64,000 nt of DNA from a virus. Lineage: Duplodnaviria; Caudoviricetes. The notes under the pieces were generated by a model. The model saw nothing but the letters and a program-made list of their open reading frames with translations. It did no database searches and was not told where the DNA came from. A program made the translations under genes and the position numbers. Within the stretch, counting starts at the first letter, position 1; the number at the start of each line of letters is the position of its first letter. Positions 3,687-61,976 of the stretch are shown here, one piece after another. The stretch lies in the IMG/VR virus record IMGVR_UViG_3300038345_000144. One strand, 5' to 3'.

Positions 3687-4139
3687 TTATCCTAACTGTC
3701 CTAATGATACCACAGGGGCAGTCCAATTATTGGGACAGATGAGCATAAAAGTCAACACAGTTATACCAAATTCAAGCGGTAGCATCGCTGGTATCTTCTC
3801 AACCCTGCTTTTACTCTTTTGAGTGGTTCTGTATAAGAGTGCATAAGCCAGAAAACACGCAATCAATGTTATCGCTAAAATCTTACTATTTACTATTATA
3901 ATTAAATAGCCCATCACGAAAAGGTACAGTATATCAATCGGGAAATCCTTAATTTTAGCCAAAACAATAACTACTAATCCCAACAATAGCGTATAGTCCA
4001 CTAAACAGGACACACTAATGTAATTGATTAGTAGTAACCAAATCGGAATTTCCTGATATTTTAGGTCATATACCGCTACCATTATTGATGATAGCAGTAA
4101 TATGCCTAATAAAACAAATTTGATAACAGTCATCATCAT
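3687..4139 (-). CDS. Prepilin peptidase-like (A24 family) membrane protein
   Basis: Polytopic; AVYDLKYQEIP matches the A24 first-Asp motif; C-terminal KIPAMLPL resembles xIPFxPxL; second Asp possibly in FPID. Confidence 0.6.
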   Translation of the reverse strand: MMMTVIKFVLLGILLLSSIMVAVYDLKYQEIPIWLLLINYISVSCLVDYTLLLGLVVIVLAKIKDFPIDILYLFVMGYLIIIVNSKILAITLIACFLAYALLYRTTQKSKSRVEKIPAMLPLEFGITVLTFMLICPNNWTAPVVSLGQLG

Positions 4140-5182
4140 TTCAATAATGCGTCAGAATGTTCTCCAATATAGATTTTCTGCGGGATTTGTGCGTAGAATA
4201 GCGTATTATCCTGCATTACAGAGAGGAACCTCTTGGCATCATCAGTATTGAAGTAGCCTTGTTCTGTAAAAGTATAAACTCTATTCTTACTGTCAGCGAT
4301 GAACTTCTTGTAGAATTCATCAATCTTGTCAGCAAGGATTTGTTCATTTTCTTTAGAGAAATCAAGTTCCATATACTTCTTCTTACCGATAGGAGTAATG
4401 AGATAACCCTTTGAAATCTCTGTATTAAGTTCCTGCTCCATACCCCACTTATACAAAATCATAGAACCCAAATAACCGTCAAATGTTACATATTCAGGCT
4501 TTGGATTACCAGTCTTGTAGTCAAGGATAACTGGACCGACCTCATCACGATAGTCAATACGGTCTGCTACATAGGAAACGGCACAAGGGAGTGTATAGCC
4601 AATAGACTTGACATATAACTTCTCTCTGCCTCTATGCTCCGTTGAACATTTGAGTTTTGCGTCCTCAAGAATGTCCTTCGGGTGCAGATAGTCCTTAATA
4701 TCGTAATATCCCTTAACAAAACTCTCAAGTTTCTCTCTGTCCTGACCAGGTGCTATAACCTCGTCTAAAATCTCAAAGAGTTTGCTTCTATGTCTTTCAT
4801 CAGCAGGGAGATTATAGTAAATTTCCATAATCTTGTGGAACGCAGTACCTAAAGCGGTAGCGTCATTGACCTGCTCGGTAAAGAAATTCTGCATCAACAA
4901 AAGGGCGGGGTTAGTCATATAACCAGAGAGAAAACTCGGTGAGAAGTAATCTCCGCTAAATCTATTCAATAGAGACTGAATGGAAGAACCATAGCCCTGA
5001 TAGATAGCAACATTTCTGGTCTGATGCTTATTGTTGTACGCCTTTACGAGTTTCTGAATGAGTAATTCACAATCAGTAAAAAGTGCTGATGCGTCCAATG
5101 TCTTGTTGTTAATTTTAGCAACATAAGTTAAGAGGTAGTCTTTACCTTCTTCTGTAATAATCTGGTCTCTAATATCGCCCAT
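4136..5182 (-). CDS. PD-(D/E)XK nuclease (RecB/AddB-like)
   Basis: FSPS, LGTAFHKIME, ADRID, ILDYKTG motifs. Confidence 0.8.
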   Translation of the reverse strand: MGDIRDQIITEEGKDYLLTYVAKINNKTLDASALFTDCELLIQKLVKAYNNKHQTRNVAIYQGYGSSIQSLLNRFSGDYFSPSFLSGYMTNPALLLMQNFFTEQVNDATALGTAFHKIMEIYYNLPADERHRSKLFEILDEVIAPGQDREKLESFVKGYYDIKDYLHPKDILEDAKLKCSTEHRGREKLYVKSIGYTLPCAVSYVADRIDYRDEVGPVILDYKTGNPKPEYVTFDGYLGSMILYKWGMEQELNTEISKGYLITPIGKKKYMELDFSKENEQILADKIDEFYKKFIADSKNRVYTFTEQGYFNTDDAKRFLSVMQDNTLFYAQIPQKIYIGEHSDALLK

Positions 5183-5517
5183 TAAGAAAACACCCTTTCT
5201 ATAATCTGTTCGTCAGGTTCAAAAATAAAATCTGACTCTATTTCGGCATTATTACTATCATACTGGGTTTCAAACCATTTGTAAAGGGCAACAATGTCGT
5301 GGTTTGTAAGCAATCTGTTAGGTGTGAGTAAGACTTTACCGTACTTATTCTGTCTGTTTATCAGCCAAGTTATACGGTTAATCTTGAACTCCTTAAACTC
5401 CTTATTGAGTCTCTTTCTTGTCACCTCATCGTGAATTTCGTGGTTATTGAGTTTGTCCTCGGCAGTAGCCTTTTCACGCTCATTACCTACATACTTAAAT
5501 TCTGCTACATAAATCAT
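5182..5517 (-). CDS. Hypothetical protein coupled to RNAP genes
   Basis: Start and stop overlap with both neighbours. Confidence 0.6.
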   Translation of the reverse strand: MIYVAEFKYVGNEREKATAEDKLNNHEIHDEVTRKRLNKEFKEFKINRITWLINRQNKYGKVLLTPNRLLTNHDIVALYKWFETQYDSNNAEIESDFIFEPDEQIIERVFS

Positions 5518-6515
5518 ACTTTCTTCGCTCCCTTGTATCTGTCGGTGGCAATCTCGGTCTTAACAGAGTTAGCCTCAAATGTTCCTGCTACAAGCAACTT
5601 CTCGAAAGACTGCTGTGTAGGTTTATAGATAAACGCTCCAAACTTATCACCCTGCTGGAGGAAAGATGTCTGTAAAGCGGCGAACTTACCGTTTCTCCAT
5701 CTTGAGAGTAAGGCAACTTCGTAAAATCTTGACTCAACTCCTACATTACCAATCTGGTCGATAATTTCCTGTATCTTTTCCTTTGCTTCAGCGATATTCT
5801 TAATCTTCGGTATCTTCTGCTCAAGCAATACATTGATACGCTCGGAGGTTCCCTTGTTCATAGCATCCAAAGCACCCTGCGTAGCGTACTCTGTAATCAT
5901 ATAAGTAGCCCATTCGCCAATGTTGATAGGTACGAAGGTAGAGTCCCATTCTCTTCTGTAAAGACCAGCACACTTCGCACAGAAATGTCTGATACCGTGA
6001 GTACAAGTAAGGAAGTTACGAATGTGGATAGTACCACGCTTCGGAAGTTCGGAGTAGTCCTCAACATAACGGTCCAACTCCATAACCCAGTGGTTCCTTA
6101 TCTTGTAGTTGAAAGTATCTTCATCAACTGGCATCTTGAACTCAACGCCTTCGCTCTTGCAGTCGGCAATATCAATGCTCATACCGTCACAAGAACTTGC
6201 CAGTTTTTTCCAGAAGTAACCAGAAGCCGTAATATCCGTAACATTAGCGGAAATTACCTGCTTCATAAACTTATTTGACTCTTCCTCGGAGTAATTGTCA
6301 GTTCTTCTGTTAACAGAGTTGGCAATATCTTTTGTGTTACCAGTAAACTCGGTGATGTTCTCAATTTTCTTCATAGAAGTCTTGTTCTTCTCACCAAAAG
6401 CCTTTGCAAAGTCGCCTACATTCGGGATGTAGCACTTGGTAAACATAGCCATTCTGTCTGCATTGTACTGTTCTAAATACTCGTCACGACTTACTCTTTT
6501 AAGTTTTTTAGCCAT
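5514..6515 (-). CDS. rpoC: RNA polymerase beta-prime-like subunit, C-terminal part
   Basis: TASGYFWKKL ~ bridge helix TAxSGYLTRRL; IRNFLTC...CAKCAG ~ Zn site; NIGEWATYMITEYATQ ~ trigger helix AVGxxAAQSIGEPGTQ. Confidence 0.8.
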   Translation of the reverse strand: MAKKLKRVSRDEYLEQYNADRMAMFTKCYIPNVGDFAKAFGEKNKTSMKKIENITEFTGNTKDIANSVNRRTDNYSEEESNKFMKQVISANVTDITASGYFWKKLASSCDGMSIDIADCKSEGVEFKMPVDEDTFNYKIRNHWVMELDRYVEDYSELPKRGTIHIRNFLTCTHGIRHFCAKCAGLYRREWDSTFVPINIGEWATYMITEYATQGALDAMNKGTSERINVLLEQKIPKIKNIAEAKEKIQEIIDQIGNVGVESRFYEVALLSRWRNGKFAALQTSFLQQGDKFGAFIYKPTQQSFEKLLVAGTFEANSVKTEIATDRYKGAKKV

Positions 6516-6984
6516 TCTTTTTATCCTCTATCTTTGCGGTGGTTTCGTCTGTTTTATCTGCAATACATACAAGCACAGTGTCGTCTGCCAAATAAAGCGT
6601 TAACTCATTACCGTCGATAACCATACTCGCATTATCGCTGTTGTTATCGAATACAATGATATACTCTACGGCAGTCTCACTCTGGGGCTTTTCACCTTCC
6701 TCAAGTTGTCTCTTTTCGTAAGTACCGTGTTCCTGCGACACTACTTCTCCGTCAACCTTAATGCCAATGTCAATGTCCTTCTTTCCTAACTGGACGATTA
6801 CTTCAGCATTTTGAGCAAGATTTGTTCGATAAATAGTCTTGGTGGGTTTCAAGAGCAAGATAGTGGCAAATATGATAATACCGATAACCAATATAGCAAA
6901 GAATACTACATTGGAGTTAATCGGAGGCATATTACCCTTCTTGGCGGGCTTTTTCTTTGTCTCGGTCTTTTTCTCTTCAGCCAT
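6508..6984 (-). CDS. Membrane-anchored hypothetical protein
   Basis: Single N-terminal TM segment; sits between the RNAP beta-prime halves. Confidence 0.65.
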   Translation of the reverse strand: MAEEKKTETKKKPAKKGNMPPINSNVVFFAILVIGIIIFATILLLKPTKTIYRTNLAQNAEVIVQLGKKDIDIGIKVDGEVVSQEHGTYEKRQLEEGEKPQSETAVEYIIVFDNNSDNASMVIDGNELTLYLADDTVLVCIADKTDETTAKIEDKKNG

Positions 6985-6987
6985 AGA

Positions 6988-8292
6988 TTACTCCTTTGTT
7001 GCCATCATTTGGGCTGTTATTATCCATTCTACATACTCAAACTCTTCGAGCAATCTGTTACGGATGCTGGAGTTTGAACCCTCGATATAGTTATGACTCG
7101 GTAACAACTTCTCTGCTTCCTTACAAGCCTTCTTTGTGTAAAGAGCAATAACATTAAGCGTGTCACCGTCAACATCTGCGGCGAGTCCGTCATAGATGAT
7201 AGGATTTGTCTGGATAACATACTTCTCGTCATCATCAGCAGAGAAATATGGTATCATTCCCATAATGGACTTTGCACCAATTGTAGGTTGGCGGTTCAAA
7301 AGAACATAATAATGTCCATCTTCCAAAATCTTGTTAACCTTATCAATGTCGGTCTTACCTGTTGTCTTATCCGTACAATCAGCGTAAATCTTCGGATAAA
7401 GTGTCTTAATGAACCAACTACCAATGACAATCTTATCTTCAGGCAAACGGCAGTTATTTGTCATAACGGCTCTAATCATACCTGTCTGGGGCTGTCCCCT
7501 CAACTCATTGGCGATGATGTTTCTCTTGTTCTTGGCAAGTATCTGGAACAAAGACTTATACAACTTCTCAAGGGTTGCACAAGTGACATATCTGATGTTC
7601 AACTCGTTAATCTTTGTCAGTCTGCTGTTTACAGAGAACTTATCATACTTGAGTTTCTGTCTGATAATCTTGATATATAACTGGTTCAACTGTCCGAGGA
7701 ACCTCTTACCATTCTGGAAAGTAATCTTTCTGAATGATGTGTGAGGGATAGCGATGAGCCTGTGAGTGTTTCTCTCATACCACTTACGGATGTCCTCCGA
7801 GTCCTCGATATAGAACAGAGCGTCCTTACCGTAGAGAATACGGTCTTCCTCGTAGATGGACATATCCTTCTTGAGGTCAAACTCAACAATCTGGTCTTCT
7901 TCGTCTCCCTTTCCCTTATAGATAAACCACTTATAGTATAAGAGGTTATACATCATATCCATTGTTGCTTTGTCGAAATCAAATTCGTCATCGCAGTTCC
8001 AGTCAAAGACCCAGTTAGGGAGGTCAAAGCCAAACTTTACATAGAAGTTAGGCATCCTTCTCTTATCAAGAACACGGCAACCACAGGCTTCACAGATACC
8101 AGGTCTGGTCAAAAGACCGCACTTACAGTGTCCAAACTTACCGAATATTTTTTCGGAGAAGATACCTTCCTCGTCAAAAAGATATTCACCAGTTACGCTG
8201 TCCTTAATCTTACGAGCCTGAAAAACCTTATCTGAAGTAACTTCATTCATAGGGTTTTCTTTAATCTTAATCGGCTTCACTGTTATCTTCAT
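6988..8292 (-). CDS. rpoC: RNA polymerase beta-prime-like subunit, N-terminal/catalytic part
   Basis: GIFSEKIFG, CKCG..CEACG Zn finger, LNRQPTI, catalytic AADVDGD (cf. NADFDGD). Confidence 0.9.
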   Translation of the reverse strand: MKITVKPIKIKENPMNEVTSDKVFQARKIKDSVTGEYLFDEEGIFSEKIFGKFGHCKCGLLTRPGICEACGCRVLDKRRMPNFYVKFGFDLPNWVFDWNCDDEFDFDKATMDMMYNLLYYKWFIYKGKGDEEDQIVEFDLKKDMSIYEEDRILYGKDALFYIEDSEDIRKWYERNTHRLIAIPHTSFRKITFQNGKRFLGQLNQLYIKIIRQKLKYDKFSVNSRLTKINELNIRYVTCATLEKLYKSLFQILAKNKRNIIANELRGQPQTGMIRAVMTNNCRLPEDKIVIGSWFIKTLYPKIYADCTDKTTGKTDIDKVNKILEDGHYYVLLNRQPTIGAKSIMGMIPYFSADDDEKYVIQTNPIIYDGLAADVDGDTLNVIALYTKKACKEAEKLLPSHNYIEGSNSSIRNRLLEEFEYVEWIITAQMMATKE

Positions 8293-10546
8293 TCGAGTCC
8301 TCTTCCTTTCCCATAATAGAGTTAATTTGCTGTAAATCCCTCTCGTCCAAACCCTTATAGTCTACGACATTGTTCTCAATGGAGATACTGTAACCCATTG
8401 ACTTAACAACCTCAATAAAGTTAAGGGAAAGTCTTGTATTTTCTGGAAGTTCTCTGGTTTCCTGCATATCAGCAATCATTCTGTGGGAGCCAATATACTT
8501 TGTAACACTTCTGATACCCAACTCCTTGAGGATATTAGGGCAATCGTTTGCTACAAGGTTCATCTTCTCCATTTCACCGAACTTCAGTGTTCTGCCGTAT
8601 GCGGAGTCTGCCGATGACTCGGAGATATGGGTTGCGGCGTGGTGGTACAGTCTCATAATATAGTTGAGACCAACAGGTACGGTCTGCTTCTGTCCCTTAT
8701 ACTCCAATACAGAGTTCTTGGCATATTCCTTCATCTGGTCAGCATAACGCTCAATCATAATAGCAATAAAGTCTTCGTTTTCACCGTATTCAATATTGCT
8801 TGCCAATGCCCAAGCCTCAAAAATCTGACCAAGTGAACCTCTACGCATTGTAGAGAAACCTGAAATAACAATTTCCATAGGTCCTGCCTTCATATCGCCT
8901 ACATCGTGCAAGAGACGAGGCATCTGGTCGTCAGGAAGGATAAGTCCTACTGTACCCTTCGCACCGTGGAGGTTGGTAATCTTATCACCAAGTCTGAACG
9001 GGATTTCCCAAGACAGGAATACACGGATATTGTTCTTATCTACCTCATCAAATCTGTCAATCTTGAAGTTCTCATAGTTTGAAAGCACAGCGTCACTCTT
9101 GTTAGGGAATAACTGCTTAAGAGCCTCTAAATTAAAGTCCTGCTTGGCAATAAGAGCAAAGTCCTTTGAATTCTTATTTAAGTATAAAATTGTCTTGTCA
9201 AAAGTTCTTAACCTTTCGGCAAATGACTTTGAAATAATCATTGAGTCGGCGGCAGTATATCCCTCAATGTCGCAAAAACAAACCCTTGCCTTAATTCTGT
9301 GTGTAAGAGGGTCAATTTCCTCTGCTAACGGAACTGCCTGTGATGTCATTTTAGCGTTCATCATAATACGCTTCGGCTTATCGTTGTTACCAAACGGAGC
9401 CTTTGACAAACAAGAAAGACGGGCTTTCTGCGGGTCGGTGAAATACTCGTACATATTCTTCTGTACGCCGTTCTCATCTACAATCCACAACATTCCCTTC
9501 TTCGTTACAACATTATCAAGCAACAATCTCTGACGACCTGCTGACTGTGATGTTACAGTCTTGAATGAGTCAAAGAAACCGTTAGTGTCTGTGTAAGTAA
9601 ACGCAGGCTTGAATTTGGTCTTCTTATCATCATCACCATTATGGTCGTAATGATTGCTTGGAGCGTTGTCGTTACCATTGTAAATATTTACGCAAGTTCT
9701 GAAGTTTTCAAGTGCAAAAATAAGGCTTTCGCTACGAACAAGGCAACCTTCGAGGTTCTCGCCTGATGTCGTGTACTGCTTTGCCTTTGAAGCAATAATA
9801 GTGTTGATACCCAAGAGTATCTTCTTTGTAGGTTGAGCAAACTTCTTGGAGTTAAGGATAATATCCTCAAAGTATTCCATTCTGGAGAACTTATAATTGA
9901 AGATACTGTCGCTCCTGAACTTTGGAACCTGTCTCAAAGCCTCTGTAAAGTTATCCAGTGTGAGAGGCTCCTTGATAATAGACATCAACAAGCACTTGGA
10001 CCTGAAAGTGAGGTTATTGAATACCTCTTCTTTTGTAGGCTCAAACTGGTTTTTAGGGTCTTTGTAAGTACATTCAAAGGTGTCAGAAGGAATATCATAC
10101 TTCCAACCGTTATCACCTCTGATGGTCTGGAAATCCCAACGAGCCAAAGCCCCGTAGAAGTCCTTAACGGCTGTCACACGGGTTACATAGTGGGTTCTGT
10201 TGATAATCCAGCAAAGGTCAATACAGGGCAACGGCATCGCCCCTAATTTGAGACGCTTGCCGTTGTAATCACCTGAAATATCGACACACATAGAGTGAAA
10301 ATTTAACTTCAACTGATATGAGTTCTTTGTCTGTTTAGACGCATCATAGTTAAGTACGCCGTTGTTAAAATATCTGGCTAACTTACAGGGTGAGTCCGTA
10401 TTCCAATACTTCTCGCAATCCCTGTCGATGCTTGCCTGAATATCAGCAAAGTTGTCATTTTCATCAATAGGAGTTAGCCCCAAAAAAGACTGATTTGCAA
10501 CAGTCCAAAAGGCTAACTCTTTGGCATAAAGTTCCGTAATTGTCAT
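8267..10546 (-). CDS. rpoB: RNA polymerase beta-like subunit
   Basis: RIMMNAKMTSQAVP, EGYTAADSMIIS, GDKITNLHGAKG, MRLYHH, KFGEMEK correspond to conserved RpoB blocks. Confidence 0.9.
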   Translation of the reverse strand: MTITELYAKELAFWTVANQSFLGLTPIDENDNFADIQASIDRDCEKYWNTDSPCKLARYFNNGVLNYDASKQTKNSYQLKLNFHSMCVDISGDYNGKRLKLGAMPLPCIDLCWIINRTHYVTRVTAVKDFYGALARWDFQTIRGDNGWKYDIPSDTFECTYKDPKNQFEPTKEEVFNNLTFRSKCLLMSIIKEPLTLDNFTEALRQVPKFRSDSIFNYKFSRMEYFEDIILNSKKFAQPTKKILLGINTIIASKAKQYTTSGENLEGCLVRSESLIFALENFRTCVNIYNGNDNAPSNHYDHNGDDDKKTKFKPAFTYTDTNGFFDSFKTVTSQSAGRQRLLLDNVVTKKGMLWIVDENGVQKNMYEYFTDPQKARLSCLSKAPFGNNDKPKRIMMNAKMTSQAVPLAEEIDPLTHRIKARVCFCDIEGYTAADSMIISKSFAERLRTFDKTILYLNKNSKDFALIAKQDFNLEALKQLFPNKSDAVLSNYENFKIDRFDEVDKNNIRVFLSWEIPFRLGDKITNLHGAKGTVGLILPDDQMPRLLHDVGDMKAGPMEIVISGFSTMRRGSLGQIFEAWALASNIEYGENEDFIAIMIERYADQMKEYAKNSVLEYKGQKQTVPVGLNYIMRLYHHAATHISESSADSAYGRTLKFGEMEKMNLVANDCPNILKELGIRSVTKYIGSHRMIADMQETRELPENTRLSLNFIEVVKSMGYSISIENNVVDYKGLDERDLQQINSIMGKEEDSNEDNSEAD

Positions 10547-10574
10547 TTATGCACTCCTTATAGTGTTTTATTTA

Positions 10575-10949: not shown

Positions 10950-10985
10950 TTTCCTAAATTTCCTTCCTAAAATTAAAATTATATT

Positions 10986-11213: not shown

Positions 11214-11240
11214 ATTTGTACTCCTTAAAAGTTGTGTGGT

Positions 11241-11999: not shown

Positions 12000-12026
12000 C
12001 CCCACTATGCTTTTATATACTTAATC

Positions 12027-12055
12027 ATTATAACAATATTATTTTTCTTTGTAAA
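12027..12055 (-). promoter_or_regulatory. sigmaA-type promoter
   Basis: TTTACA-N17-TATAAT. Confidence 0.75.
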
Positions 12056-12059
12056 TAGC

Positions 12060-19087: not shown

Positions 19088-20161
19088 TTATATACTTGCC
19101 AGATTTACATTCCTGTAAGACATATCATCTGTTACCTCTTTAATGACCTTAATCTCATCTGGTATAGAGATTTTAGCGTCCTCGGAGGACATTTCAATCT
19201 CAAGAATTGCCACATCATTCCAGTTAGGATAAATGTCTATCTCTAAATAACAATCCATATATGACATACAGTAGCGTGTCTTTCTTATCTGGTGCTTTGA
19301 GGTGTCTGCGTTCATCAACAGGGCTAAATACTCGTCCTTTGTCAACATACGCTCAATCTCCATACGCTTGATGTCCGATACCCTACGCTTGATGGTCTTT
19401 GTGTAAACATAGTTACCGTTAAGTCCTCTTTGTCTAACTCTGACCTCATCTTCGGGGTTATCGCTGTTCAAATATGTCTGGATAATATCTACCTTCTGAA
19501 CATTAGGCAGGCTCTCCAGCCACGCAACATCAGGGTACTCAATCAAGAATTTACGCTCAATCTCGTAAGGCTCTGGCTCACCTAAATAAGATGTGATTTC
19601 CGTCATAAGTCGCTTAATCTTCTCATCAAAACCTGTTGAGTTGTCGATAATTCTGAAGTGCGGGTGTCCTGTCCAAGCCTGCATAACCTTTGTATCGTTA
19701 TCCCTTGCCTGTTCAGGAGTTTCCCATCTTGCCTGATTATTTTCTGTGGTATAGAACTCTTCTGCACCCTTCGCCGCAGTTACGAGGTGGAATACTGCAC
19801 CGTAGTTATCACGGAGTTCAACCTCATTTGTGCCAAGAGTATGTAAAACTCTGTTCCACATTTCTTCGTCCATATAAGCCTTGTTATCCAAAACTCCTCT
19901 GTCGCAGATGATAATAGCCTTCTGGTCAAGAGTTTTAGAGGCTTCCTCATAGATACGCTCCTTATCTAACTGGTATTTTGTCAGATAAGTCTGGAATTCC
20001 TTAAAATCTACTGGGGTTAATCCGCTTGAGATAAGTTCGGTGGCAGACTCGGCAATAATAAGTACCTTATAACCAAGTTGTGTCAATTCCTTACTAATCC
20101 TGCTCATAGCGGTTGATTTACCAGCACAAGGACCGCCAGTTATTACGATTTTTTCAACCAT
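19088..20161 (-). CDS. AAA_28 P-loop kinase-like domain fused to CYTH domain
   Basis: GGPCAGKS Walker A, CDRG; EIERKFL CYTH motif. Confidence 0.85.
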   Translation of the reverse strand: MVEKIVITGGPCAGKSTAMSRISKELTQLGYKVLIIAESATELISSGLTPVDFKEFQTYLTKYQLDKERIYEEASKTLDQKAIIICDRGVLDNKAYMDEEMWNRVLHTLGTNEVELRDNYGAVFHLVTAAKGAEEFYTTENNQARWETPEQARDNDTKVMQAWTGHPHFRIIDNSTGFDEKIKRLMTEITSYLGEPEPYEIERKFLIEYPDVAWLESLPNVQKVDIIQTYLNSDNPEDEVRVRQRGLNGNYVYTKTIKRRVSDIKRMEIERMLTKDEYLALLMNADTSKHQIRKTRYCMSYMDCYLEIDIYPNWNDVAILEIEMSSEDAKISIPDEIKVIKEVTDDMSYRNVNLASI

Positions 20162-42811: not shown

Positions 42812-43564
42812 TTACTTACACCACTTACACTTACAATATGTGTCCTTAATGAAGTAATTAGCGTAGTGCTTATACTTCTTATAGCGATTAGGGTTTTTGG
42901 TATGATACGAAATGCTGTTAAAGTACAGTACATTATGAGGTATCTTACCCTGCTTAATCTGCTTATAGGCAAGCAAGATTGCTAACTGGGCTTTCTTATC
43001 GTTTGCTCTACCTGACCTATCCTTCTTTAAGTCATAAAACTGACCTGGCTCGTTGATTACGCCCTTGATAGAATTCTTAAATTGCTTACAATGCTTTCTA
43101 TTCCAGATAACCGCCGCAACCAAAATCTTATCATTCATTTGAGTGCCTGCTTCGTGGGTAATAACTTCGGTCATCATCTTATATTCCTTGACCGAAATAC
43201 CGACCAACTTTGCCTTTTCTTTGATAGACAAAGCATTTAGTTCCTTTTTAGACATATTCATTACGGTTTTCTTCTGAACTGGGGTTTCTTGTAAATCTCC
43301 TACCAATTCATTCAAAATCTCAACATCTCCGAACTCATCATTGGTCTCTCCCGAACTCTCGGAGGTTCCTGTGGTACTCTCGGAAGGGGTACTCTCGTTT
43401 GGCACTGACTCGGAGGGTAATTCACTCTCCGTAGTTTCCGTTATTTCTGTTGTGGGTGCTGGTTCTGGCTGTTCTGACGGATTAGTTGTCCTAACTGCGT
43501 GTAGTGGGTGTGCTAAAAACAGCATAGCCAGAGCGTAGGTCATTACAGTCTTTGTGTTTAACAT
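42812..43564 (-). CDS. SleB/CwlJ-like cell wall hydrolase (Hydrolase_2)
   Basis: Signal peptide, S/T/E/P linker, ITHEAG, VAAVIWNR, VINEPGQF, VLYFNS. Confidence 0.85.
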   Translation of the reverse strand: MLNTKTVMTYALAMLFLAHPLHAVRTTNPSEQPEPAPTTEITETTESELPSESVPNESTPSESTTGTSESSGETNDEFGDVEILNELVGDLQETPVQKKTVMNMSKKELNALSIKEKAKLVGISVKEYKMMTEVITHEAGTQMNDKILVAAVIWNRKHCKQFKNSIKGVINEPGQFYDLKKDRSGRANDKKAQLAILLAYKQIKQGKIPHNVLYFNSISYHTKNPNRYKKYKHYANYFIKDTYCKCKWCK

Positions 43565-50854: not shown

Positions 50855-52768
50855 TTACTTTCTCAAGTTACAACAGTCGTCAGGATTAGGGTTAAACTGG
50901 GTGTTCCAGAACTCGTAAGCCTCGTCTTCATCTTCGCATACGGAGATTTCCTTAAAGCCCTTAATATTCTGGATTAACTCCTTCTTCTTTGCTAATGGAA
51001 GATGGTTATAACCACCGTGCTTAACCGTGTATGGAGTGAAGTCAATATCAAACCACTTCTTAATCCAAGTGTTGACTCTCAAGAACTCAACGATAATCTT
51101 ATCACACTTAATCTTTGCCAACTTATCGTAGTCAACAAATTCAGGAATAAACGGAGAAAGTCTTACCTGAACATCAAAACCACGCTCATAGAGTCTCTCT
51201 ACTGCCCAAATTCTTCTGCTCGGTAACGGTGCTTTCTCGTAGTCCAACTTCTTATAGAGGTCATCATCAAAACAAGTAATAGTTACCTGAATATGTGCAA
51301 GTTCGGGGTCAAGAATATCGAGATACTCGTCCCTACCAATAATATCACCCTTTGTAACAATGAGGTAAGGCTGACGCTTCTCGTTTAGAGCCTTGATTAT
51401 TTCATAAGTAACTCTCTTTTCCAACTCTAACGGCTGGAAGGGGTCGGTCATACCGCCAAGTCTGATAGCGGGCATACCTGCGGGAAGTTTAGCAATCTTT
51501 CGCTTTGCCTGCTCGATATTAGTAATTGCAGGGTCCTTCGGGTTCCACAACTTTCTAAAATCAAGTAATGACTTTGCATAGCAATTATGAGAAATTACAC
51601 CATTAGCCACAAAATTACGAGTTGTTGTAGTTATGTCTACCAAAGGTTGGGTATCTTTTAACTTTTTGATACTAACAATTTTTAAGTCGCCAGCATTAAA
51701 AGTCTTGAGGGCAATATTAGCAATTTCGCCTTCTCGATTACACTTGACACATTTAACGATATTGTTAAATCTGATGCTTTCGGATAAGCCTCCTACTAAT
51801 CTTACCGTTTTGCACACACTATTTTTAGTCTTTGCTTCTTTATCAAAGGTATATGCAAATTCAAATGCAGTTAAAGCGTCCGTATATTCTTTAATTAGTT
51901 TGTCATCCGTATTATAAACTCTACGAATTAAAATATTAGAACTACCTTCGGCATCATATAAGCCCGCCAAAAAACCTCTTCTAAATTCACGGGTCTTTTT
52001 AGTATCTATGAGGTCATTGATTTCATCAAAGTTTTCTTTTGACGAAGTTCTTATTGCCATTACCGTATAGTGTTCTTTAGTGCTACGGTCAATCATCGGG
52101 AATTCAAACCAAGCAGGCTCAACCCCAAACCAAACTAAATAATCAAACACTCTATCCGTAATTGCTTCGTCTTTCAAAGCAAGTCTAAAATGATATTGAT
52201 TATCAGTATGTCTATAAGGTCTTTCTGGATAGTTATATTCCTGTAAGTTAGCGTCACCTAAAATAACACCTCTCAAGTAGCCCTTTTTGTAGTCGTCGGT
52301 CTCTTCAAAGAAAGGAACATCAAATAAAGTAGCAAATCCCATTAACTGATTATTTTCGGTAATATAAGGTCTTCTATTCTCCCCTGTCATTTCACCAGTT
52401 GTGTACTTCCAACCTCTATCAGTAAGCCACTGGTGGTCAGCAGAACAAATAAGTGTATTGCCGTTTGAGAGTTTAATCTTATATGCCTCTTTTGCCACTA
52501 TGTTTTTATTTGTTACAATGGATTTTGTAAACTTTTTATAAGTATTGCCATCGCCTTCAACAATACCATATATTTCATCACCCACCTCTATATCACCAAT
52601 AGTCTTAATAGACCCGTCATACATCAAAATTTGGGTGTCCATTGAAAGACAATAGGAACAATCGTGTTGGCATCCGCAACCGTAACTATCTAATCGTGTA
52701 GGATAATGACACTTACTACCCTCGTTGCCCTTAACTTCCTTGTAAAAACTCTTAAACTCTTTACCCAT
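50855..52768 (-). CDS. Radical SAM protein (spore photoproduct lyase-like family), intein-containing
   Basis: CQHDCSY|C motif, RLGGMTDPF, YLIVTK, VQVRLSPFIP. Confidence 0.85.
   Translation of the reverse strand: MGKEFKSFYKEVKGNEGSKCHYPTRLDSYGCGCQHDCSYCLSMDTQILMYDGSIKTIGDIEVGDEIYGIVEGDGNTYKKFTKSIVTNKNIVAKEAYKIKLSNGNTLICSADHQWLTDRGWKYTTGEMTGENRRPYITENNQLMGFATLFDVPFFEETDDYKKGYLRGVILGDANLQEYNYPERPYRHTDNQYHFRLALKDEAITDRVFDYLVWFGVEPAWFEFPMIDRSTKEHYTVMAIRTSSKENFDEINDLIDTKKTREFRRGFLAGLYDAEGSSNILIRRVYNTDDKLIKEYTDALTAFEFAYTFDKEAKTKNSVCKTVRLVGGLSESIRFNNIVKCVKCNREGEIANIALKTFNAGDLKIVSIKKLKDTQPLVDITTTTRNFVANGVISHNCYAKSLLDFRKLWNPKDPAITNIEQAKRKIAKLPAGMPAIRLGGMTDPFQPLELEKRVTYEIIKALNEKRQPYLIVTKGDIIGRDEYLDILDPELAHIQVTITCFDDDLYKKLDYEKAPLPSRRIWAVERLYERGFDVQVRLSPFIPEFVDYDKLAKIKCDKIIVEFLRVNTWIKKWFDIDFTPYTVKHGGYNHLPLAKKKELIQNIKGFKEISVCEDEDEAYEFWNTQFNPNPDDCCNLRK
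51584..52651 (-). mobile_element. Intein with LAGLIDADG homing endonuclease (356 aa)
   Basis: Starts CLSMDT, block B SADH, GYLRGVILGDA and GFLAGLYDAEG, ends NGVISHN followed by +1 Cys. Confidence 0.95.
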
Positions 52769-55454: not shown

Positions 55455-55493
55455 TGAACAAAAGTAAGGTTTCTTCTTTATATTATTACTTCC

Positions 55494-56204
55494 TCAAATT
55501 TCATATTCTTTGATGCCTTCAAAAAGCATTTCATAGTTCCCATTCTGCCAGTCACCGTGGAAATGTCCAAACCACCACTTCTTAAATGAGAGGCGGTCAG
55601 CAATATCCTGCAACCACTTTTCAGTTGACTTATCTACACTCTCTTGGTCAATAAATGATAAAAACAAATGTGTAGGCTCTGTACTAATGGGACAGGTATG
55701 TGAAAGAACCATATCAACTGCCCAGTCATTATCAGCCAACTGTTTTTCAACATAAGCCTTAATCTCTGGAGTCGGTTGTTCGCTTTCCCACCAACCACCG
55801 CCTTGTGCAAGACGATACCATTTATCCACAGAATAAGCCCCTCCGATTACAACGGTCTTATAACCATTCAAATCATAGATTTCACCGTCTTTGGCAAATA
55901 TCTGGTTAGGATATTCTGGGTTAACATAGGTAATGCCCCCGAAATGTTCTTCCTCAACATAACCTTCTACAAGGAAAGGACGCTCTTCGTGATTTCCGTG
56001 TATGCAAAAGAAAGTAAGTGGTATGTCAGCCACTTTCTTTTTCATTTGCTTTGAGTATTTGGTGTCTTTACCGTCGTGGACATAGAAGTTTAACCCTGCA
56101 TCGCCCAAAACAATCATTACATCTTCTTTAGTTGTCTGCATACGCTCGGCAAAGTGGGCTAATCGCTCAAACTTTCCGTGTGTATCTCCTGTTATATAAA
56201 ACAT
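55494..56204 (-). CDS. Calcineurin-like metallophosphoesterase
   Basis: GDTHG, LGDAG, GNHE, GGAYSVD, SHTCP, GHFH. Confidence 0.9.
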   Translation of the reverse strand: MFYITGDTHGKFERLAHFAERMQTTKEDVMIVLGDAGLNFYVHDGKDTKYSKQMKKKVADIPLTFFCIHGNHEERPFLVEGYVEEEHFGGITYVNPEYPNQIFAKDGEIYDLNGYKTVVIGGAYSVDKWYRLAQGGGWWESEQPTPEIKAYVEKQLADNDWAVDMVLSHTCPISTEPTHLFLSFIDQESVDKSTEKWLQDIADRLSFKKWWFGHFHGDWQNGNYEMLFEGIKEYEI

Positions 56205-56215
56205 TCAGTTACTCC

Positions 56216-58318
56216 TTATCCGTACTGCTTAATGAATTCGCCCACGCCAAGTTTTTTAATCATCTTTTTATTAAAGGCTGTTCTCTTATGATTAAGATAC
56301 AAAGTCTTAATTAACGCAATCAAAGGGATAACAGTAAAACCTAAATAGGTAAACCAAAAACTGGCATCAGTTTGGAGAGGTTCCTGTTTTACAAAAGAAA
56401 CCACAAATACTACGACACAAAATATAGAAAGTGTTAAAAATAGGGCAAGACCTATCGTGTAAATAAGCCCCTCTACCATACCCATCTGGTATTGTTCCGT
56501 CTTATAAATGGTTCCACAATCACATAAAGTCACTTCTTGACCTAAACGGTTACTATTGTGATGAAAATGTCTTGAACAACCACAAACAGGACACTTAAAT
56601 TGTTCTATTTCGCTTATAAGATTTTTATAATATGCCCAAGATTTAGCCTCTTTAAGCATTTGACTATATTCGGCAGTATGATTAGCCTTTGTAATCTTAA
56701 TTTCACTCATTTTTTGCCTCCATACTTTATCTGAAGTGTCTCAAGAATTTGAGACACTCCTTTTACTCTATAAAACTTTTGTAAGTGAAAATCGTCGAAA
56801 TTTAAGGTAACTTCATCGAGATAGCCGTCACACCCCATAGATGGCATACGCACATTTGACCAATCCTTACTCTTCGCCTTTAGCGTTTTCTTGATGTCTT
56901 CCCATTCTTGCTTATCCAACCTATGGGGGTGGCAACTGTTATCTACAAAATATGGCTCATCATCAACGCAATAAACCATATAATTACAAGTAGACCAACC
57001 ATCTTCTCCGTGATACCACAGAGTATAGTTACCTGTCTTTTCTCTATTTAACACTGTAAGTCCAATTTTGTCAATAGTTTTTAAGGTTTCAAAAAATTTT
57101 TCACAAAATTCCCAGTAAGGACAGTCTTGGCATTTCATTCCTAAAACATCGTCAGGACAATTTACCATTCCTGCCTGCCAAACTAATTGCATAGCCTCTG
57201 TGAGAGGTAATAATTCTCGTTTATCAGCCATCAATGTAGTCCGTAGCAACTATTTCTACTTTGTCAGCCGTGTAGAAATCTGTTTTAACTTTCTTTGCTT
57301 GTAGTTGTCTAACGCCCTGACCTGACACATAGATAGCCAGTGTAAGACAAACAACTCCAACGGTGATAACCGCATCCTTTAACTCTCTTTGTGAAACAAA
57401 CTTATATCCCAGAACAAAGATGATTATGCTGACCCCCAGCATAATTAAAGAAACAATAATTAAGTTATTCATTGAAGCGACCTTCTTTCTTTCTCTGCTA
57501 AAAGTTCTTGTTCCCACTGGAGCCAGCCTGGTTTATCACAGGTTTCGCTACCATAATTATCGAACTGTCTCTGTAATCTACAACCGTCTAACAGAACACC
57601 AATATCCTTATCTTCCAACTGTGATAGATGTGGTCTAACAATATCTCTAATAAGACCTGGCATATATGTTTGTCTACCTTCACAATATCTAATAGCACAA
57701 ACCACTAATGCTCCAAATTCCTCACTTGTAAGTGTGATGTGGTCTTCTTCATATCGTCTAATAGTCTCACAGACATCAAACGCCTGAATATAATCCTGCC
57801 CATCACTTGACTCGGCAGTATGTAATTCTGCAATCCTTTTCATTAGGGGACTCATATTTGTAGCCATAAAAACACCTCTATTATATATAGTTTGTAATAT
57901 ATTATCATAATAGAGGTTTATTTGTAAAGATTTATATAATCGTAAATCCTTTTCTTACCGCATCTACGACCTTATGAAGTTTTCTAAAGTTCTTAAAACT
58001 GCTTGCAGTTCCGTAGTAAGCCTTTGGTACTCCGTCAAAGTTGACAATTATTTTTAGTGGAGCATCGACCAAATGACTGACCTCCCACGATTTAGTGTAC
58101 TTGGTAATCTTATGAACCACCTTGTCATATTGCCATTGAGATACAGTAGGAATATGATGGTCTCTGCCATTATATGCGATTATCTTATCTCGGATAGCAA
58201 AAAGCATTAGTTCTTCAGTAACTTCATTATTACAACAGCCTACGGTTGTGTAGCAAAAATAGAACAAGAAGTCTTGTTCTTTCAATCTCTGCTGTATTTC
58301 TCCGTAGCCTATTTCCAT
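56216..58318 (-). CDS. Five hypothetical genes (56216-56710, 56707-57231, 57224-57472, 57469-57867, 57932-58318)
   Basis: Operonic ORFs; 56707-57231 is paralogous to 58953-59477. Confidence 0.6.
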
Positions 58319-58594
58319 TCATTATCCTTTGTGTTGGAGAATTGTAAAAATTCTTTAATGCTCCTATTATACACTATTATTGTTTTTCTATGTTATAAAT
58401 TTTGGATATATGTTACATTTACCTACCAAATCGCTCTTTGTTAATTATCATTTCCCTTTCATCGTAGACTTCTTTAAGCATTGGACACTCTTCCATATAC
58501 TTGCATAACCTACAATCAGTAGCCCAGTTACAGTCGTTTTCGCCTTTCTGGTGAGATACAAAACTCATACCTGCTAATATGTCGTCTCTATACA

Positions 58595-58972
58595 TCAGTC
58601 TTTATCCTCCAAATAATCAACAATGTCTATTGCCTGCATCAAGATTTCTTCAAATGATACTCCACCAAACCACTCGGAGCCTTGTACTCTAAAACGAGTA
58701 AACTTGTTTTGTACCCATCTTTCAGCCTTCTTCTGTCGAACTGGGGTACTAACAGCAACTCGGATGAACTCACTGCCCCCCGAATTGCTATGTCCCAAAC
58801 TGTTAATTCTTTGAGCAATATTCTTTGACCTGCCTACCTTAATCATATCGTGAGAGTTCTCAATGATGTAGATATAGTAGGCATTGTCCAGTCTCGGAAG
58901 TTGCTTAATGTCCTCTAAATGAGGCTCAAACCTTTGAGTATAGATAGTAAAATTAGCCATTTTTACCTTCAT
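58595..58972 (-). CDS. T5orf172/GIY-YIG-like domain protein
   Basis: YIYIIE...IKVGRS...QRI...E...GSEWF. Confidence 0.75.
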   Translation of the reverse strand: MKVKMANFTIYTQRFEPHLEDIKQLPRLDNAYYIYIIENSHDMIKVGRSKNIAQRINSLGHSNSGGSEFIRVAVSTPVRQKKAERWVQNKFTRFRVQGSEWFGGVSFEEILMQAIDIVDYLEDKD

Positions 58973-60234
58973 AAATTTTAGTCAATAAAGTTTCGACATC
59001 CATACACTGGTAGAATGTCTGTCCGTTAAAATCCCCAAAGTTAAGGGTAACTTTACTTTCAGGAAAATCGCATCCCATAGGTGGAACATACACCTTTGAC
59101 CACTCTTTACTCATCGCTGTTAGGGTTGTCTTGAGGTCCTCCCACTCTTGCATATCTAACTTGTGGGGCTGTGTCATCGCAGGTCTACCGCCCACCAAAT
59201 AAGGCTCTCCGTAATATAGATATATCATAAAAGAGTTACTTGTCCAACCGCTTTCCATTTCATAATACAAAGCATAGTTGTCTGTTGCCGTTCTATTTGA
59301 TGGGGTAAGGGCTATTTCTTGGATAATGTCATACGCCTCCTTCAATTTATTGCAGAATGGCTGATACGGACACTTCTTACAGGGTAAATGTCTTACCTTT
59401 TCAGGGCAGTTTGCTTTTTCAAGTGCCTGTATTACTAACTCCATAGCCTCTGATACAGGCAATAAATTATTATCCATTTATAGTTCCTCAATATATCATA
59501 ACTTGGTCACGAAGAGTCAATGGAGTATCTCTATGTGATAAAATCATTCCTGACTTAACTTGCTTTTCAATTGTCAATTTAGTATCAGGCTCGCCACATA
59601 AACCTCTGTATATTACTTCTGCTTCCTTCTTTGAAGAGGCATAGATAAATCGAGTTTTAGTTGTTGTGCCTGTTGGGAGTGTCTTTGAAACGATATAGAT
59701 GTTCATATGTTTCCTTTCTTATTAGGTCATTGGAATATTTCCAACTACCGTTCCCTCATAGAAATGATATTCATTGTCCCAGTTACCTGTATAATCAGAC
59801 TCTAATGTATGAACACCAACAAAACCAAACTCCTTTAAGGCTCCCTCAAGGAACTTTACACCTGCGTCTACCATAGCAACATAGTCATCATTCTCAAACT
59901 GAATATAATCAGGAAAACAGCCACAATTATCAATTTCAATACCGTCGGTCTTAAAGTCAATCACTATTCTTTCTGTATCACATAAATAAGCCGAAACGCT
60001 AACGCTAATCTGGTCAATAGTTTCTAACTCTTTTGTATGATTAAGGTGATTTTCAAGTGCCTTAAATAATTGAGTCTGAAAATCTCTTGAATATACTTTC
60101 TGTTCCATTTTTTCTCTTAAATTATTTAAGAACTGGGACTTTTCCTTATTTTCTTTTGTTATTGCAAACTTCTTATCGTCCCTCTGTTTAACCAAACTGC
60201 TCATTAACTCTTTTGATACTTTTTCTCTAAACAT
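58953..60234 (-). CDS. Three hypothetical genes (58953-59477, 59488-59706, 59722-60234)
   Basis: Operonic ORFs. Confidence 0.6.
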
Positions 60235-60399
60235 ATCATACTCCTTTATTCTGTTCTTCAGTATTGACCGTGATGTTAATTAGATTACCGTGAGGATTAA
60301 AATGTTCGTCAATAGCATTTCTGCCGTCCCAAAGTTCATAACCAAAGAAAGTTTTGACCCTATATAAAGGACACGGGTAATCACTAATCTGCTCAACAA

Positions 60400-60963
60400 T
60401 CATTCACTCTTCTCCTTTACAGAACCATATCTAATCTGTTTTGCGGGCTTTTCAAGTATAGCACAAATCGGCAAACTTACAACGATAACGAAAGCATCTG
60501 CTACGAAAGATGTAAAGTTCTTTGCAATTCTTACCGCAATAGGCTGGCTTACGATGAAGTGGTCGATTACAGACTTGACCAGTTCAATACCAATAAATGT
60601 AACAACGATTGCTACGATTGCCGTAAGGATAACCTGCACTGCCTTATTATTGATTTTCTTAATAAAGGGAAGTGTAAGACCAATACCCACACCGATAACA
60701 ATATTACCTACCGCCCAACCAGGCAGACCATTAAAGCCCAACTGTCCGATAAGACCATAAAGCAGTGTGCCTAAAAAGCCGATGATAGCACCATCATACC
60801 ACTTAAAGCACCATACATATACCGTCATAACGACATAGCCCAAGCAGAGATAATAGTTCTCAAATACGGGTACTCGGAGGCACATAGATAATACTACAAA
60901 GAGTGCAATACCTATTGCCAGAAATGTAATAGTTCTGATTGTTTCTTTACGCTTTGTATTCAT
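60400..60963 (-). CDS. ECF transporter S component
   Basis: Multi-TM; ITFLAIGIAL (AxxxA), RVP...YYLCLG, GAIIGFLG. Confidence 0.8.
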   Translation of the reverse strand: MNTKRKETIRTITFLAIGIALFVVLSMCLRVPVFENYYLCLGYVVMTVYVWCFKWYDGAIIGFLGTLLYGLIGQLGFNGLPGWAVGNIVIGVGIGLTLPFIKKINNKAVQVILTAIVAIVVTFIGIELVKSVIDHFIVSQPIAVRIAKNFTSFVADAFVIVVSLPICAILEKPAKQIRYGSVKEKSE

Positions 60964-60966
60964 AAG

Positions 60967-61761
60967 TTACTCTCCTACATAAATCAGTTTTTCAAGATAT
61001 TCTCTGTTCTCACCCTTGAGAATAGGCATTTCCTTATCAACAAACCACTTGCCGTTTGCATCCTTAATACAAGCAGTACCTCTCTTCTGTGTAATAGGAA
61101 ATTTATCCCAGTTAATGTTGTAGGTACTCCAGAGCATTTCCTGAATGTCATCACAACTCTTGTTGTTAAGTTCCTTGTGTGAGAAGTATGCCCTACCAAC
61201 CATCTGAATACTGTTTCTTGTAGCGTCCTGCTGTCTCCAGTAAACAAGGTTAGTAACCTCTTCCTTTGGAATGTTAAAGCAACGAGCGTCAAACATAGCA
61301 CCCTTTTCAAGAGCCTTGTAAAGTGAGTTGACATACTTCTTGTCCTCGTCCTCTATGTTCCAAGCCTCATTGATATAATCAATATCCTCTTTTGCCTTAC
61401 TTCTAAATATTCTATTGAATACCATAGTTGCCATAGAAGCAGAAATACTGCACATCTTCTGAACTTCGTAATCAAACCACGCTGAAGTGTCCTTCTTCTG
61501 ATAGTCAATGAGAATAAGAGTAATCTCATCTGACTGTGTGTAACCAAATACACAGCCCTGAATATTCTCACAGAGATACTTCATTGTCTCCTGCATTGAC
61601 TCCATCAGGACCATATCAAAAGGCTTTCTGAACCCTCTTGTAAAAGTGTGGAACGCCTTACCATCAATTCTAATTGCAACAGGCGTTCTTCTCATTAACC
61701 TTGTCTTTGGAATACCCTCATAGTATTCCTTCATTCTTGTACCAAGACTATCCTTTATCAT
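60967..61761 (-). CDS. thg1: tRNA(His) guanylyltransferase / Thg1-like protein
   Basis: RIDGKAFHTFT, GYTQSDEI, FDARCF, WRQQDATRNS. Confidence 0.92.
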   Translation of the reverse strand: MIKDSLGTRMKEYYEGIPKTRLMRRTPVAIRIDGKAFHTFTRGFRKPFDMVLMESMQETMKYLCENIQGCVFGYTQSDEITLILIDYQKKDTSAWFDYEVQKMCSISASMATMVFNRIFRSKAKEDIDYINEAWNIEDEDKKYVNSLYKALEKGAMFDARCFNIPKEEVTNLVYWRQQDATRNSIQMVGRAYFSHKELNNKSCDDIQEMLWSTYNINWDKFPITQKRGTACIKDANGKWFVDKEMPILKGENREYLEKLIYVGE

Positions 61762-61772
61762 ATTAAATCTCC

Positions 61773-61976
61773 TTAATTGTTTCCGTTACCACTCTGCATA
61801 ATCCAATATGCCCAAGCAGGAACCTCTGAAATAGGCTTGTCGCCATACTCAATAAAGGCAAATACCTTCAAAATGATTGTACCAACCACCAGTGCAACCA
61901 CCAGAACGATAGCAACAATCAGCAAAATTTCTGTGAAGGTAAAACCTCTCTTATTGTTCTTGTGTATTCTTCTCAT
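61773..61976 (-). CDS. Miniature type IV prepilin-like protein
   Basis: MRRIHKNNKRG|FTFTEILLIVAIVLVVALVVG class III signal with Glu+5; AAGGAG RBS; 67 aa. Confidence 0.75.
   Translation of the reverse strand: MRRIHKNNKRGFTFTEILLIVAIVLVVALVVGTIILKVFAFIEYGDKPISEVPAWAYWIMQSGNGNN

Follow-up and report, generated by a model that had tools for sequence, protein, structure and literature searches.

The DNA analysed here, referred to as the window, is a stretch of 64,000 nucleotides from the IMG/VR virus record IMGVR_UViG_3300038345_000144 (Duplodnaviria; Caudoviricetes), a giant rumen phage with a genome of ~0.4 Mb. Two of its genes are considered, one for a six-helix membrane protein and one for a type IV pilin-like protein (the mini-pilin), which lie 58 kb apart in separate modules. 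These genes and the features around them are as follows.

3011..3268, minus strand: two-helix membrane protein of 85 aa (N-terminal ...STLL.NL....SMPTN...), kept beside the six-helix protein in relatives
3687..4139, minus strand: six-helix membrane protein of 150 aa from a small phage-only family (open reading frame and model)
4136..5182, minus strand: PD-(D/E)XK nuclease gene (Pfam PDDEXK_1, E 1e-10), its stop overlapping the start of the 150-aa gene
60967..61761, minus strand: Thg1-like tRNA-His guanylyltransferase, downstream neighbour of the mini-pilin gene (Pfam Thg1, E 1.9e-29; PHROG 4717, E 2e-84)
61773..61976, minus strand: type IV pilin-like gene with a headless product of 67 aa (open reading frame and sequence reading)
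61983..61987, minus strand: ribosome-binding site GGAGA, 6 nt before the ATG at 61976 (direct reading)
61988..62479, minus strand: upstream operon neighbour, 163 aa from ATG (PHROG 16527, function unknown)
62948..62977, minus strand: promoter-like site (TTTACA, 18 nt, TG, TATTAT) heading the mini-pilin operon (consensus scan only)
63010-63039 and 63171-63198: terminator-like hairpins just upstream of the promoter-like site (consensus scan only)

The initial annotation had described a class III signal in the product of 61773..61976, and the open reading frame and each element of that signal could be read directly. The leader, MRRIHKNNKRG, consists of 11 aa with five Lys or Arg and has Gly at -1; the cleavage context is G|FTFTE, with Phe at +1 and Glu at +5, and the 20 residues after FTFTE carry no charge and are for the most part hydrophobic (the hydrophobic helix is given as 25 residues long). 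The mature length of about 56 residues was also borne out, since 56 were counted after the predicted cut. The 31 residues beyond the hydrophobic helix form a tail, broken by Lys-Pro, and include no globular alpha-beta head. The profile check proposed at the outset gave a divided answer: Pfam N_methyl (PF07963) matched the mini-pilin at E 6e-4 over model positions 1-26 of 27, though its 19.7 bits fell 1.5 bits short of the Pfam cut-off of 21.2, and PF01478 did not match the 150-aa protein. Five pilin or pseudopilin models of NCBIfam (PilA, ComGD, PpdA/B, GspH) matched the N-terminus weakly and in register, that of ComGD with E 0.13 over the N-terminal 32 residues only. The top PDB sequence matches were Geopilin domain 1 structures, 9egp and 7tgg (E 0.02 and 0.09), over residues 7-30, and six of the seven nearest Atlas structure entries belonged to N_methyl families; the Atlas model of the mini-pilin is of low confidence (pTM 0.41). 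When ~1.2 Mb of phage DNA (the window and related loci) was scanned in six frames with a strict class III pattern followed by a hydrophobic run, only the mini-pilin orthologues and one internal false match were returned. The miniature pilin is real, and its signal matches the canon as closely as can be judged from so short a motif.

The gene itself is genuine and belongs to the accessory genes of this phage species. It has a ribosome-binding site, tight operon spacing (a gap of 11-12 nt to either neighbour), a promoter-like site upstream and mainly synonymous differences between strains, i.e., two or three synonymous changes and the conservative I34V in 204 nt. The product of the adjoining 61988..62479 contains neither a membrane segment nor pilin-C-like features. 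Homologues among 5.8 billion proteins were near-identical ones only. No relative was found in 185,579 bacterial species genomes, and hence no bacterial donor pilin. Searches of GenBank phages by tblastn gave no match for either the mini-pilin or the 150-aa protein, and no DNA near-identical to the window was present among them. In IMG/VR, an exact 57-nt pattern sought for the contig of the window had no match. The Thg1 gene served as an anchor in seeking the mini-pilin gene in relatives: neither of the two closest relatives (Thg1 identity 82% and 74%) has it upstream of Thg1, and it is likewise missing in 158 other loci. The region is a variable accessory one, with gene content differing even between the closest relatives. 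The mini-pilin gene is an orphan confined to one phage species; it has no diverged homologues and its motif is therefore without an evolutionary test.

The statement that the window carries no pilus ATPase or platform gene largely held. Of its 18 open reading frames of at least 300 aa, 12 were scanned (10 otherwise assigned and two without assignment) and none matched T2SSE or T2SSF; for the remaining large frames, the RNAP and Cas labels are provisional and come partly from precomputed Pfam tags. The other genes of the element suggest a Gram-positive host. That the host has a prepilin peptidase and type IV filaments is an assumption based on the general picture of Firmicutes.

The 150-aa protein belongs to a very small family. 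A profile search of 1.84 billion proteins recovered only 33 relatives, a profile search started from the family at E<=10 returned nothing beyond the family itself, the relatives re-found by a word-indexed search had no Pfam domain, and the IMG/VR search yielded no occurrence. An earlier model built from seven sequences was weak (pLDDT 71, no fold match) and was redone with 36 sequences, which gave six helices with pLDDT 88.4 and pTM 0.80. D25, N39 and D69 are invariant in the family, with D25 and D69 present in 36 of 36 sequences, and E123 is near-invariant. In the first Asp motif, D-x5-IP, the spacing is identical to that of A24 peptidases. D69 is preceded by x-P-I (Pro in 33/36, Ile or Val in 36/36) and never by Gly. 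D25, D69 and E123 are predicted to lie on the cytoplasmic face, at the ends of helices 1, 4 and 6, because mean Lys+Arg counts are 1.8, 1.6 and 2.4 in loops 1, 3 and 5 and 0.1 and 0.6 in loops 2 and 4 (positive-inside rule). With two invariant Asp predicted on that face, the family may have a protease role.

A likeness of this protein to A24 prepilin peptidases, as originally proposed, did not survive comparison, although the open reading frame exists and encodes a six-helix protein. The Pfam scan of the window protein gave no match at E<=1, and the NCBIfam and PHROG searches gave none. PF01478 was matched by only two of the 36 family members, with E at least 0.47, and Presenilin by one. When the 36-sequence family was aligned with an A24 alignment by hhalign, the probability was 0.3% (E 0.22), and the first Asp motif was aligned while the second Asp was left unaligned. 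The A24 set in this comparison consisted of 11 proteobacterial domains of PilD/GspO type, short TadV and FlaK types being absent from it. Within the aligned motif, the Asp of the family is paired with that of A24. The second Asp that the initial annotation had asked for is present as the invariant D69, without the GxGD motif, which is missing in the family, and a catalytic role for it is putative only. Foldseek searches of the PDB with the model gave nothing below E 0.9, and the wide VIA-align search gave generic helical bundles only, the best of them a designed filament (Z 9.2). No FlaK, A24 or presenilin chain was among the top 50 matches listed in each of the two fold searches, which is an absence and not a proof of difference. 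The best ten named language-model matches in the Atlas were all of the A24 clan (top score 0.87, one of them a viral 138-aa cluster), with scores in a range that the tool itself grades as leads only, and the top BFVD match was an unnamed viral protein of 138 aa (probability 0.85). Signal peptidase II, CAAX and rhomboid proteases, and GtrA and SMR-type small membrane proteins were weighed as alternatives by motif and provisionally set aside; the Pfam scan gave no match. The 150-aa protein cannot be recognised as an A24 peptidase; its likeness to that family consists only of the first Asp motif, the topology, a second invariant Asp without GxGD, and weak language-model matches.

The 150-aa gene is a core gene of a huge-phage clade, located in a replication/transcription block and translationally coupled to the PD-(D/E)XK nuclease gene. 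A nuclease-like gene preceded it in every context seen (in one short contig the nuclease family was not recorded), and the gene order around it, which includes RNA polymerase, nuclease and gyrase genes, was conserved. The 85-aa two-helix protein has a weak TrbC/VirB2 match (Pfam, E 0.053). The replication block of huge phages contains a conserved and as yet unexplained unit linked to the membrane, made up of the coupled nuclease, the six-helix protein and the two-helix partner of the latter. Co-occurrence of the two genes in relatives was not found, the 150-aa family being present there at 46-63% identity and the mini-pilin having no diverged homologue. No class III or Flp-like leader occurred within 10 kb of the family members in relatives. 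Among 50 large IMG/VR phage records there was just one PF01478 match, below threshold. Because no A24 kinship could be detected and the 150-aa gene belongs to the replication block, the mini-pilin gene and the 150-aa gene are probably unconnected.

Several known systems can be compared with these genes. The competence pseudopilins ComGC and ComGD of Firmicutes share with the mini-pilin a short leader and the G|FT..E context. ComG pilins are ~90-140 aa long, with a folded C-terminal part, and are encoded in the comG operon, unlike the mini-pilin, whose likeness to ComGD is confined to the N-terminal 32 residues. The A24 peptidases (PilD/GspO, ComC, TadV/CpaA, FlaK/PibD) resemble the 150-aa protein in being polytopic and in having D-x5-(I/L)P and two Asp at cytoplasmic ends of helices (1 and 4). 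However, the two Asp are 44 residues apart in the 150-aa protein and 50-65 in the peptidases, and the 150-aa protein has no GxGD, no Pfam or hhalign support, no linkage to pilins or pili, and a place beside a nuclease. Geobacter PilA-N, or Geopilin domain 1 (9egp, 7tgg; GSU1496, PMC5174107), is like the mini-pilin in its short basic leader, G|FT..E, long hydrophobic alpha1-N, ~60 mature residues and lack of a globular domain. On the other hand, this likeness is limited to residues 7-30, the tail is unrelated, and the PilA-N genes have a pilus operon and a PilA-C-like gene beside them, neither of which is near the phage-borne mini-pilin. PilA1 and PilA2 of SNJ2 (Natrinema, PMC12426801) are likewise viral pilin genes without assembly genes; processing and assembly are left to the peptidase and PilB-PilC of the host (PMC12426801). 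They are archaeal and full-size, with close host homologues and demonstrated filaments (PMC12426801), whereas the mini-pilin, a putative pilin, is bacterial-type, headless and without a host homologue. PfsE of Pf phage is another tiny phage membrane protein (PMC8764522); cells lose their pili and pilus-dependent phages are excluded, the same outcome as proposed for the mini-pilin. It acts through binding of PilC and is not called a pilin in that abstract (PMC8764522).

The reading we prefer, tentatively and with a probability of roughly 45%, is that the two genes are unrelated: an accessory mini-pilin acting on host type IV filaments and a core membrane protein outside the A24 family. The mini-pilin would most likely become a host-membrane protein whose leader faces the cytoplasm, and a host prepilin peptidase of PilD/ComC type would cut it after Gly-1. 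The cleaved product could then engage the host type IV filament machinery, i.e., a type IV pilus or competence pseudopilus. It would most probably block or alter filament assembly, for example excluding pilus-dependent phages or stopping DNA uptake, because Phe1 and Glu5, used in filament docking, are kept but the head is missing. Both the cleavage by a host enzyme and the effect on pili are inferred. By analogy with PfsE (PMC8764522) and the SNJ2 pilins (PMC12426801), the role as a decoy or in superinfection exclusion put forward in the initial annotation is plausible.

The product of the small open reading frame could also be a membrane protein of ordinary single-pass type, or the open reading frame could be what is left, in decay, of the N-terminal part of a captured host pilin gene; the pilin-like signal would then have no role in pili. 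This is unlikely, if still worth serious thought. It would agree with an orphan that has near-identical copies only, with an N_methyl score under the gathering threshold, with the variable accessory region, and with the lack of a head domain and of an adjacent PilA-C-like partner. However, the class III signal is complete at all of its defining positions, which are in register, the pattern does not otherwise occur in ~1.2 Mb of six-frame phage sequence, the ribosome site is good, strain differences are mainly synonymous, and no donor pilin was found in the 185,579 species genomes. Alternatively, the mini-pilin might serve as a building block, the host machinery polymerising phage-specified filaments in the manner of the SNJ2 pilins or the headless Geobacter PilA-N. 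Phe1 and Glu5 are kept, its best solved relatives are headless pilins able to assemble (PMC5174107), and viral pilins are on record as dominant host filaments (PMC12426801). We nevertheless regard this as improbable. Next to the truncated pilin genes of Desulfuromonadales lies a GSU1497-like gene akin to the C-terminal domain of pilins (PMC5174107), and no such partner adjoins the mini-pilin gene; moreover, its 31-residue tail is interrupted by Lys-Pro and the Atlas model has low confidence.

The remaining alternatives concern the 150-aa protein. That it is a very divergent, GxGD-less aspartyl peptidase of A24 type, supplied by the phage for the mini-pilin as initially suggested, is very doubtful. 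D25 and D69 are invariant in the 36-member family, the D-x5-IP spacing and the hhalign pairing at this motif recall A24, the three acidic residues would sit at cytoplasmic ends of helices as in A24 enzymes, and the two PF01478 matches, the Presenilin match, and the Atlas and BFVD matches lean the same way. Beyond the two invariant Asp, the first motif and the topology, however, the protein fails the A24 tests: the second Asp is unaligned at an hhalign probability of 0.3%, P-I-D stands in place of Gly-x-Gly before D69, and PF01478 is matched by just two of 36 members (E at least 0.47), in a family for which 1.84 billion proteins yielded only 33 relatives. No FlaK or presenilin is among the top 50 matches of two fold searches made with a pLDDT-88 model, and the Atlas scores are at the level of leads. 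In addition, the two genes lie 58 kb apart in different modules and differ in distribution, and the 10 kb around family members contain no leader of class III or Flp-like type. A more radical suggestion, and a long shot, is that the six-helix family, with D25, N39, D69 and E123 all at the cytoplasmic face of the membrane, represents a new lineage of intramembrane aspartyl leader peptidases that lacks GxGD. As a core gene of a huge-phage clade, it would serve in the maturation of phage proteins that reside in the membrane or bear leaders and, in this phage, of the mini-pilin as well.

Based on these results, motif likeness alone is no ground for annotating a membrane protein with two Asp as a prepilin peptidase. 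Should the mini-pilin prove to be a substrate of the host peptidase that obstructs or reshapes host type IV filaments, it would represent a simple pilin-derived off-switch for a receptor or a DNA-uptake machine, and it would then be a compact probe of pilus assembly in Gram-positive bacteria of the gut and rumen.

The class III signal proposed in the initial annotation was read directly from the gene of the mini-pilin, a pilin-like protein of 67 residues, whose operon appears to be headed by a promoter-like site:

61773-61976, minus strand, pilin-like open reading frame read from the sequence: an 11-residue basic leader ending in glycine, then FTFTE, then a helix and a tail
62977-62948, minus strand, promoter-like site heading the mini-pilin operon (consensus matches only)

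The leader is followed by the G|F site, Glu at +5 and a hydrophobic run; after Phe-Thr-Phe-Thr-Glu there are 20 more uncharged, mostly hydrophobic residues and then a tail of 31. The mature protein would comprise 56 residues past the predicted cut, in agreement with the earlier estimate of about 56, and has no globular head. The Pfam N_methyl model, named earlier as a check, was matched over positions 1-26 of its 27 at E 6e-4, with a score (19.7 bits) below the cut-off of 21.2. Moreover, five NCBIfam models (PilA, ComGD, PpdA, PpdB and GspH) matched the N-terminus in register (E 0.03-0.5), and the top two PDB sequence matches were headless 'Geopilin domain 1' chains, 9egp (E 0.02) and 7tgg, over residues 7-30. 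Six of the seven nearest ESM Atlas structure rows were N_methyl families; their query TM of 0.53-0.59 counts as a lead, because a long helix alone can reach such values. A strict class III pattern with a hydrophobic run served as an empirical control: in all six frames of the window and of about 1.2 Mb of phage loci, it matched nothing but mini-pilin orthologues and one internal, non-N-terminal false hit. In sequence terms the class III signal is genuine, and cleavage is predicted.

Several features indicate that the mini-pilin is a real gene. A ribosome site (GGAGA) is located 6 nt 5' of the ATG, and intervals of 11 nt separate the ATG from the stop of the upstream gene and the mini-pilin stop from the start of the downstream Thg1-like gene. 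Two terminator-like hairpins, likewise consensus matches only, directly precede the promoter-like site, from which the mini-pilin would be read as the third gene. In three strain variants, 3-4 of the 204 positions differed from the window (2-3 synonymous changes and one Ile-to-Val), which, for so small a sample, is consistent with a translated frame. The same operon includes, besides the Thg1-like gene, a membrane protein resembling a riboflavin/folate-type ECF-transporter S component (60400-60963, minus strand; E 7e-11, under the curated cut-off).

Among 5.8 billion clustered proteins, only one 99%-identical protein and one fragment matched the mini-pilin, and neither the genomes of 185,579 bacterial and archaeal species nor the GenBank phages yielded a homologue. 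When 80 IMG/VR and 80 metagenome loci were compared, anchored on the adjacent Thg1-like gene, none of them, the two closest relatives (Thg1 identity 82% and 74%) included, had a class III gene upstream of it. Since homologues are confined to near-identical copies and the gene is absent from the Thg1 loci, the mini-pilin is a species-level accessory gene within a variable region.

The window has a G+C content of 36-43% and carries nearly all its genes on the minus strand. It encodes topoisomerase II, multisubunit RNA polymerase pieces, primase, a DnaB-like helicase, a UvsX-like recombinase, thymidylate synthase, an intein-bearing radical-SAM protein and a cell-wall hydrolase; a metagenome contig of 407,912 bp carries a protein 99% identical to the product of one of the two genes considered here. 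The 637-aa frame at 50855-52768 (minus strand) is an intein-interrupted radical-SAM enzyme, because intein splicing, Hint and LAGLIDADG domains are combined in it with a radical-SAM domain. The product of 42812-43564 (minus strand), which has a cell-wall hydrolase domain of the SleB type (PF07486), is consistent with a Gram-positive, possibly spore-forming host, and at 19088-20161 (minus strand) a CYTH domain is fused to an AAA_28 kinase-like domain. The reported lack of a pilus ATPase or platform gene held for the 12 of the 18 large frames (at least 300 aa) that were scanned, none of which belonged to a secretion ATPase or platform family (10 had other assignments and 2 had no family); the RNA polymerase labels among the rest are precomputed Pfam tags.

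The second gene had been described as resembling an A24 prepilin peptidase, and is located in a conserved unit:

3687-4139, minus strand, 150-aa six-helix membrane protein (open reading frame, AlphaFold2 model)
3011-5182, minus strand, conserved unit of a PD-(D/E)XK nuclease, the six-helix protein and a two-helix protein of about 80 aa (SMPTN motif)
8939-11120 of L005 and 8421-10049 of L187, the matching unit in two related phage loci

The protein had eight detectable homologues (identity 46-99%), and when 1.84 billion representatives were searched in full with a profile, only 33 relatives, 118-150 aa long, came up. Across the 36 aligned sequences, D25, N39 and D69 were invariant and G54, P67, M119 and E123 nearly so, with the motifs YDxKYQxIP, xPIDxLY and KISxMxPLE; AlphaFold2 run on this alignment gave a confident six-helix model (pLDDT 88.4, pTM 0.80). 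Loops 1, 3 and 5 are enriched in Lys and Arg, which would put D25, D69 and E123 on the cytoplasmic side, at the ends of helices 1, 4 and 6.

The D-x5-IP spacing and the topology are as an A24 member would show, and two invariant aspartates are present. However, the glycine before D69 expected in the A24 GxGD context is lacking, and although hhalign matched D25 to the first catalytic Asp in domains of the PilD/GspO type, the probability was 0.3% (E 0.22) and the second Asp was unaligned. The window protein had no match in Pfam, PHROG or NCBIfam, or among solved structures by sequence or Foldseek; only two of the 36 members reached PF01478 (E at least 0.47) and one reached Presenilin (0.73). A profile search at E<=10 brought back no proteins outside the family, none of whose members carried a Pfam domain, and an exhaustive structural scan gave only generic helical bundles among the matches listed. 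The ten best named ESM Atlas matches all belonged to the A24 clan (the highest score, 0.87, falls short of the tool's 0.9 line), one of them a viral 138-aa cluster, and the top BFVD match was an unnamed viral protein of 138 aa (probability 0.85, TM 0.42); these leads keep a slim chance for a divergent protease, but give no support for placing the protein in A24. Among 50 large Thg1-carrying gut/rumen phage records, the only sub-threshold Peptidase_A24 match was in a 244-aa frame (L186, 107792-107947 of IMG/VR record G023; E 1e-3, 16.7 bits).

The start of the 150-aa gene lies inside the stop of the nuclease gene (ATGA overlap). Downstream of it come a 110-aa gene and the genes for an 85-aa membrane protein with two helices, an HD protein and gyrase B/A; RNA polymerase genes lie upstream. 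In relatives at 63%, 46% and 42% identity this order was kept, the nuclease and membrane-protein genes overlapping or near-abutting, and the two-helix partner was also conserved. Stops and starts in the unit often overlap, and it sits within the RNA polymerase/gyrase block of the huge-phage clade. Right after the gyrase A gene of L187, a gene with a SecY match (PF00344) was found at 19294-19813; it would be unusual for a phage to encode a translocon subunit. Within 10 kb of the family members examined there was no class III or Flp-like leader, and the proposed co-occurrence was not borne out. Given the conserved order, the conserved partner and the lack of a nearby leader, the six-helix family is a core gene of the clade, and the mini-pilin a private accessory gene. 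The sole such leader in the window is the mini-pilin itself, 58 kb away in a different operon. If one were the dedicated enzyme for the other, the two genes should be found together in the same genomes; the context argues against linking them. Together with the failed A24 tests, it makes processing by a phage-supplied enzyme improbable, and the attractive pairing with a private peptidase is not supported.

Proteins with a type IV pilin N-terminus insert with the leader in the cytoplasm, and PilD/ComC-type enzymes accept such substrates and are tolerant of the sequence beyond the helix; a subunit docks into the filament base through Phe1 and Glu5. If abundant during infection, the headless mini-pilin may compete with host pilins for the peptidase or the platform; alternatively, it may cap or poison filament assembly, or may itself be polymerised. 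Virus-encoded pilins of SNJ2 take over host machinery (PMC12426801), and PfsE is a tiny phage membrane protein reported to abolish type IV pili and thereby to exclude other phages (PMC8764522). Headless pilins of Geobacter do assemble, with an adjacent PilA-C-like partner gene (PMC5174107); such a partner is missing beside the mini-pilin, and a filament building block is as improbable as phage-supplied processing. From these precedents and the missing partner, interference with host filaments is ranked first (0.45 for the reading as a whole), ahead of a functionless or unrelated membrane protein, which is rather unlikely. Both headless pilins and viral genes for type IV pilin-like proteins are already known; what appears to be new is a headless pilin-like gene on a bacterial huge phage, for which interference with the filaments of the host is the proposed function.
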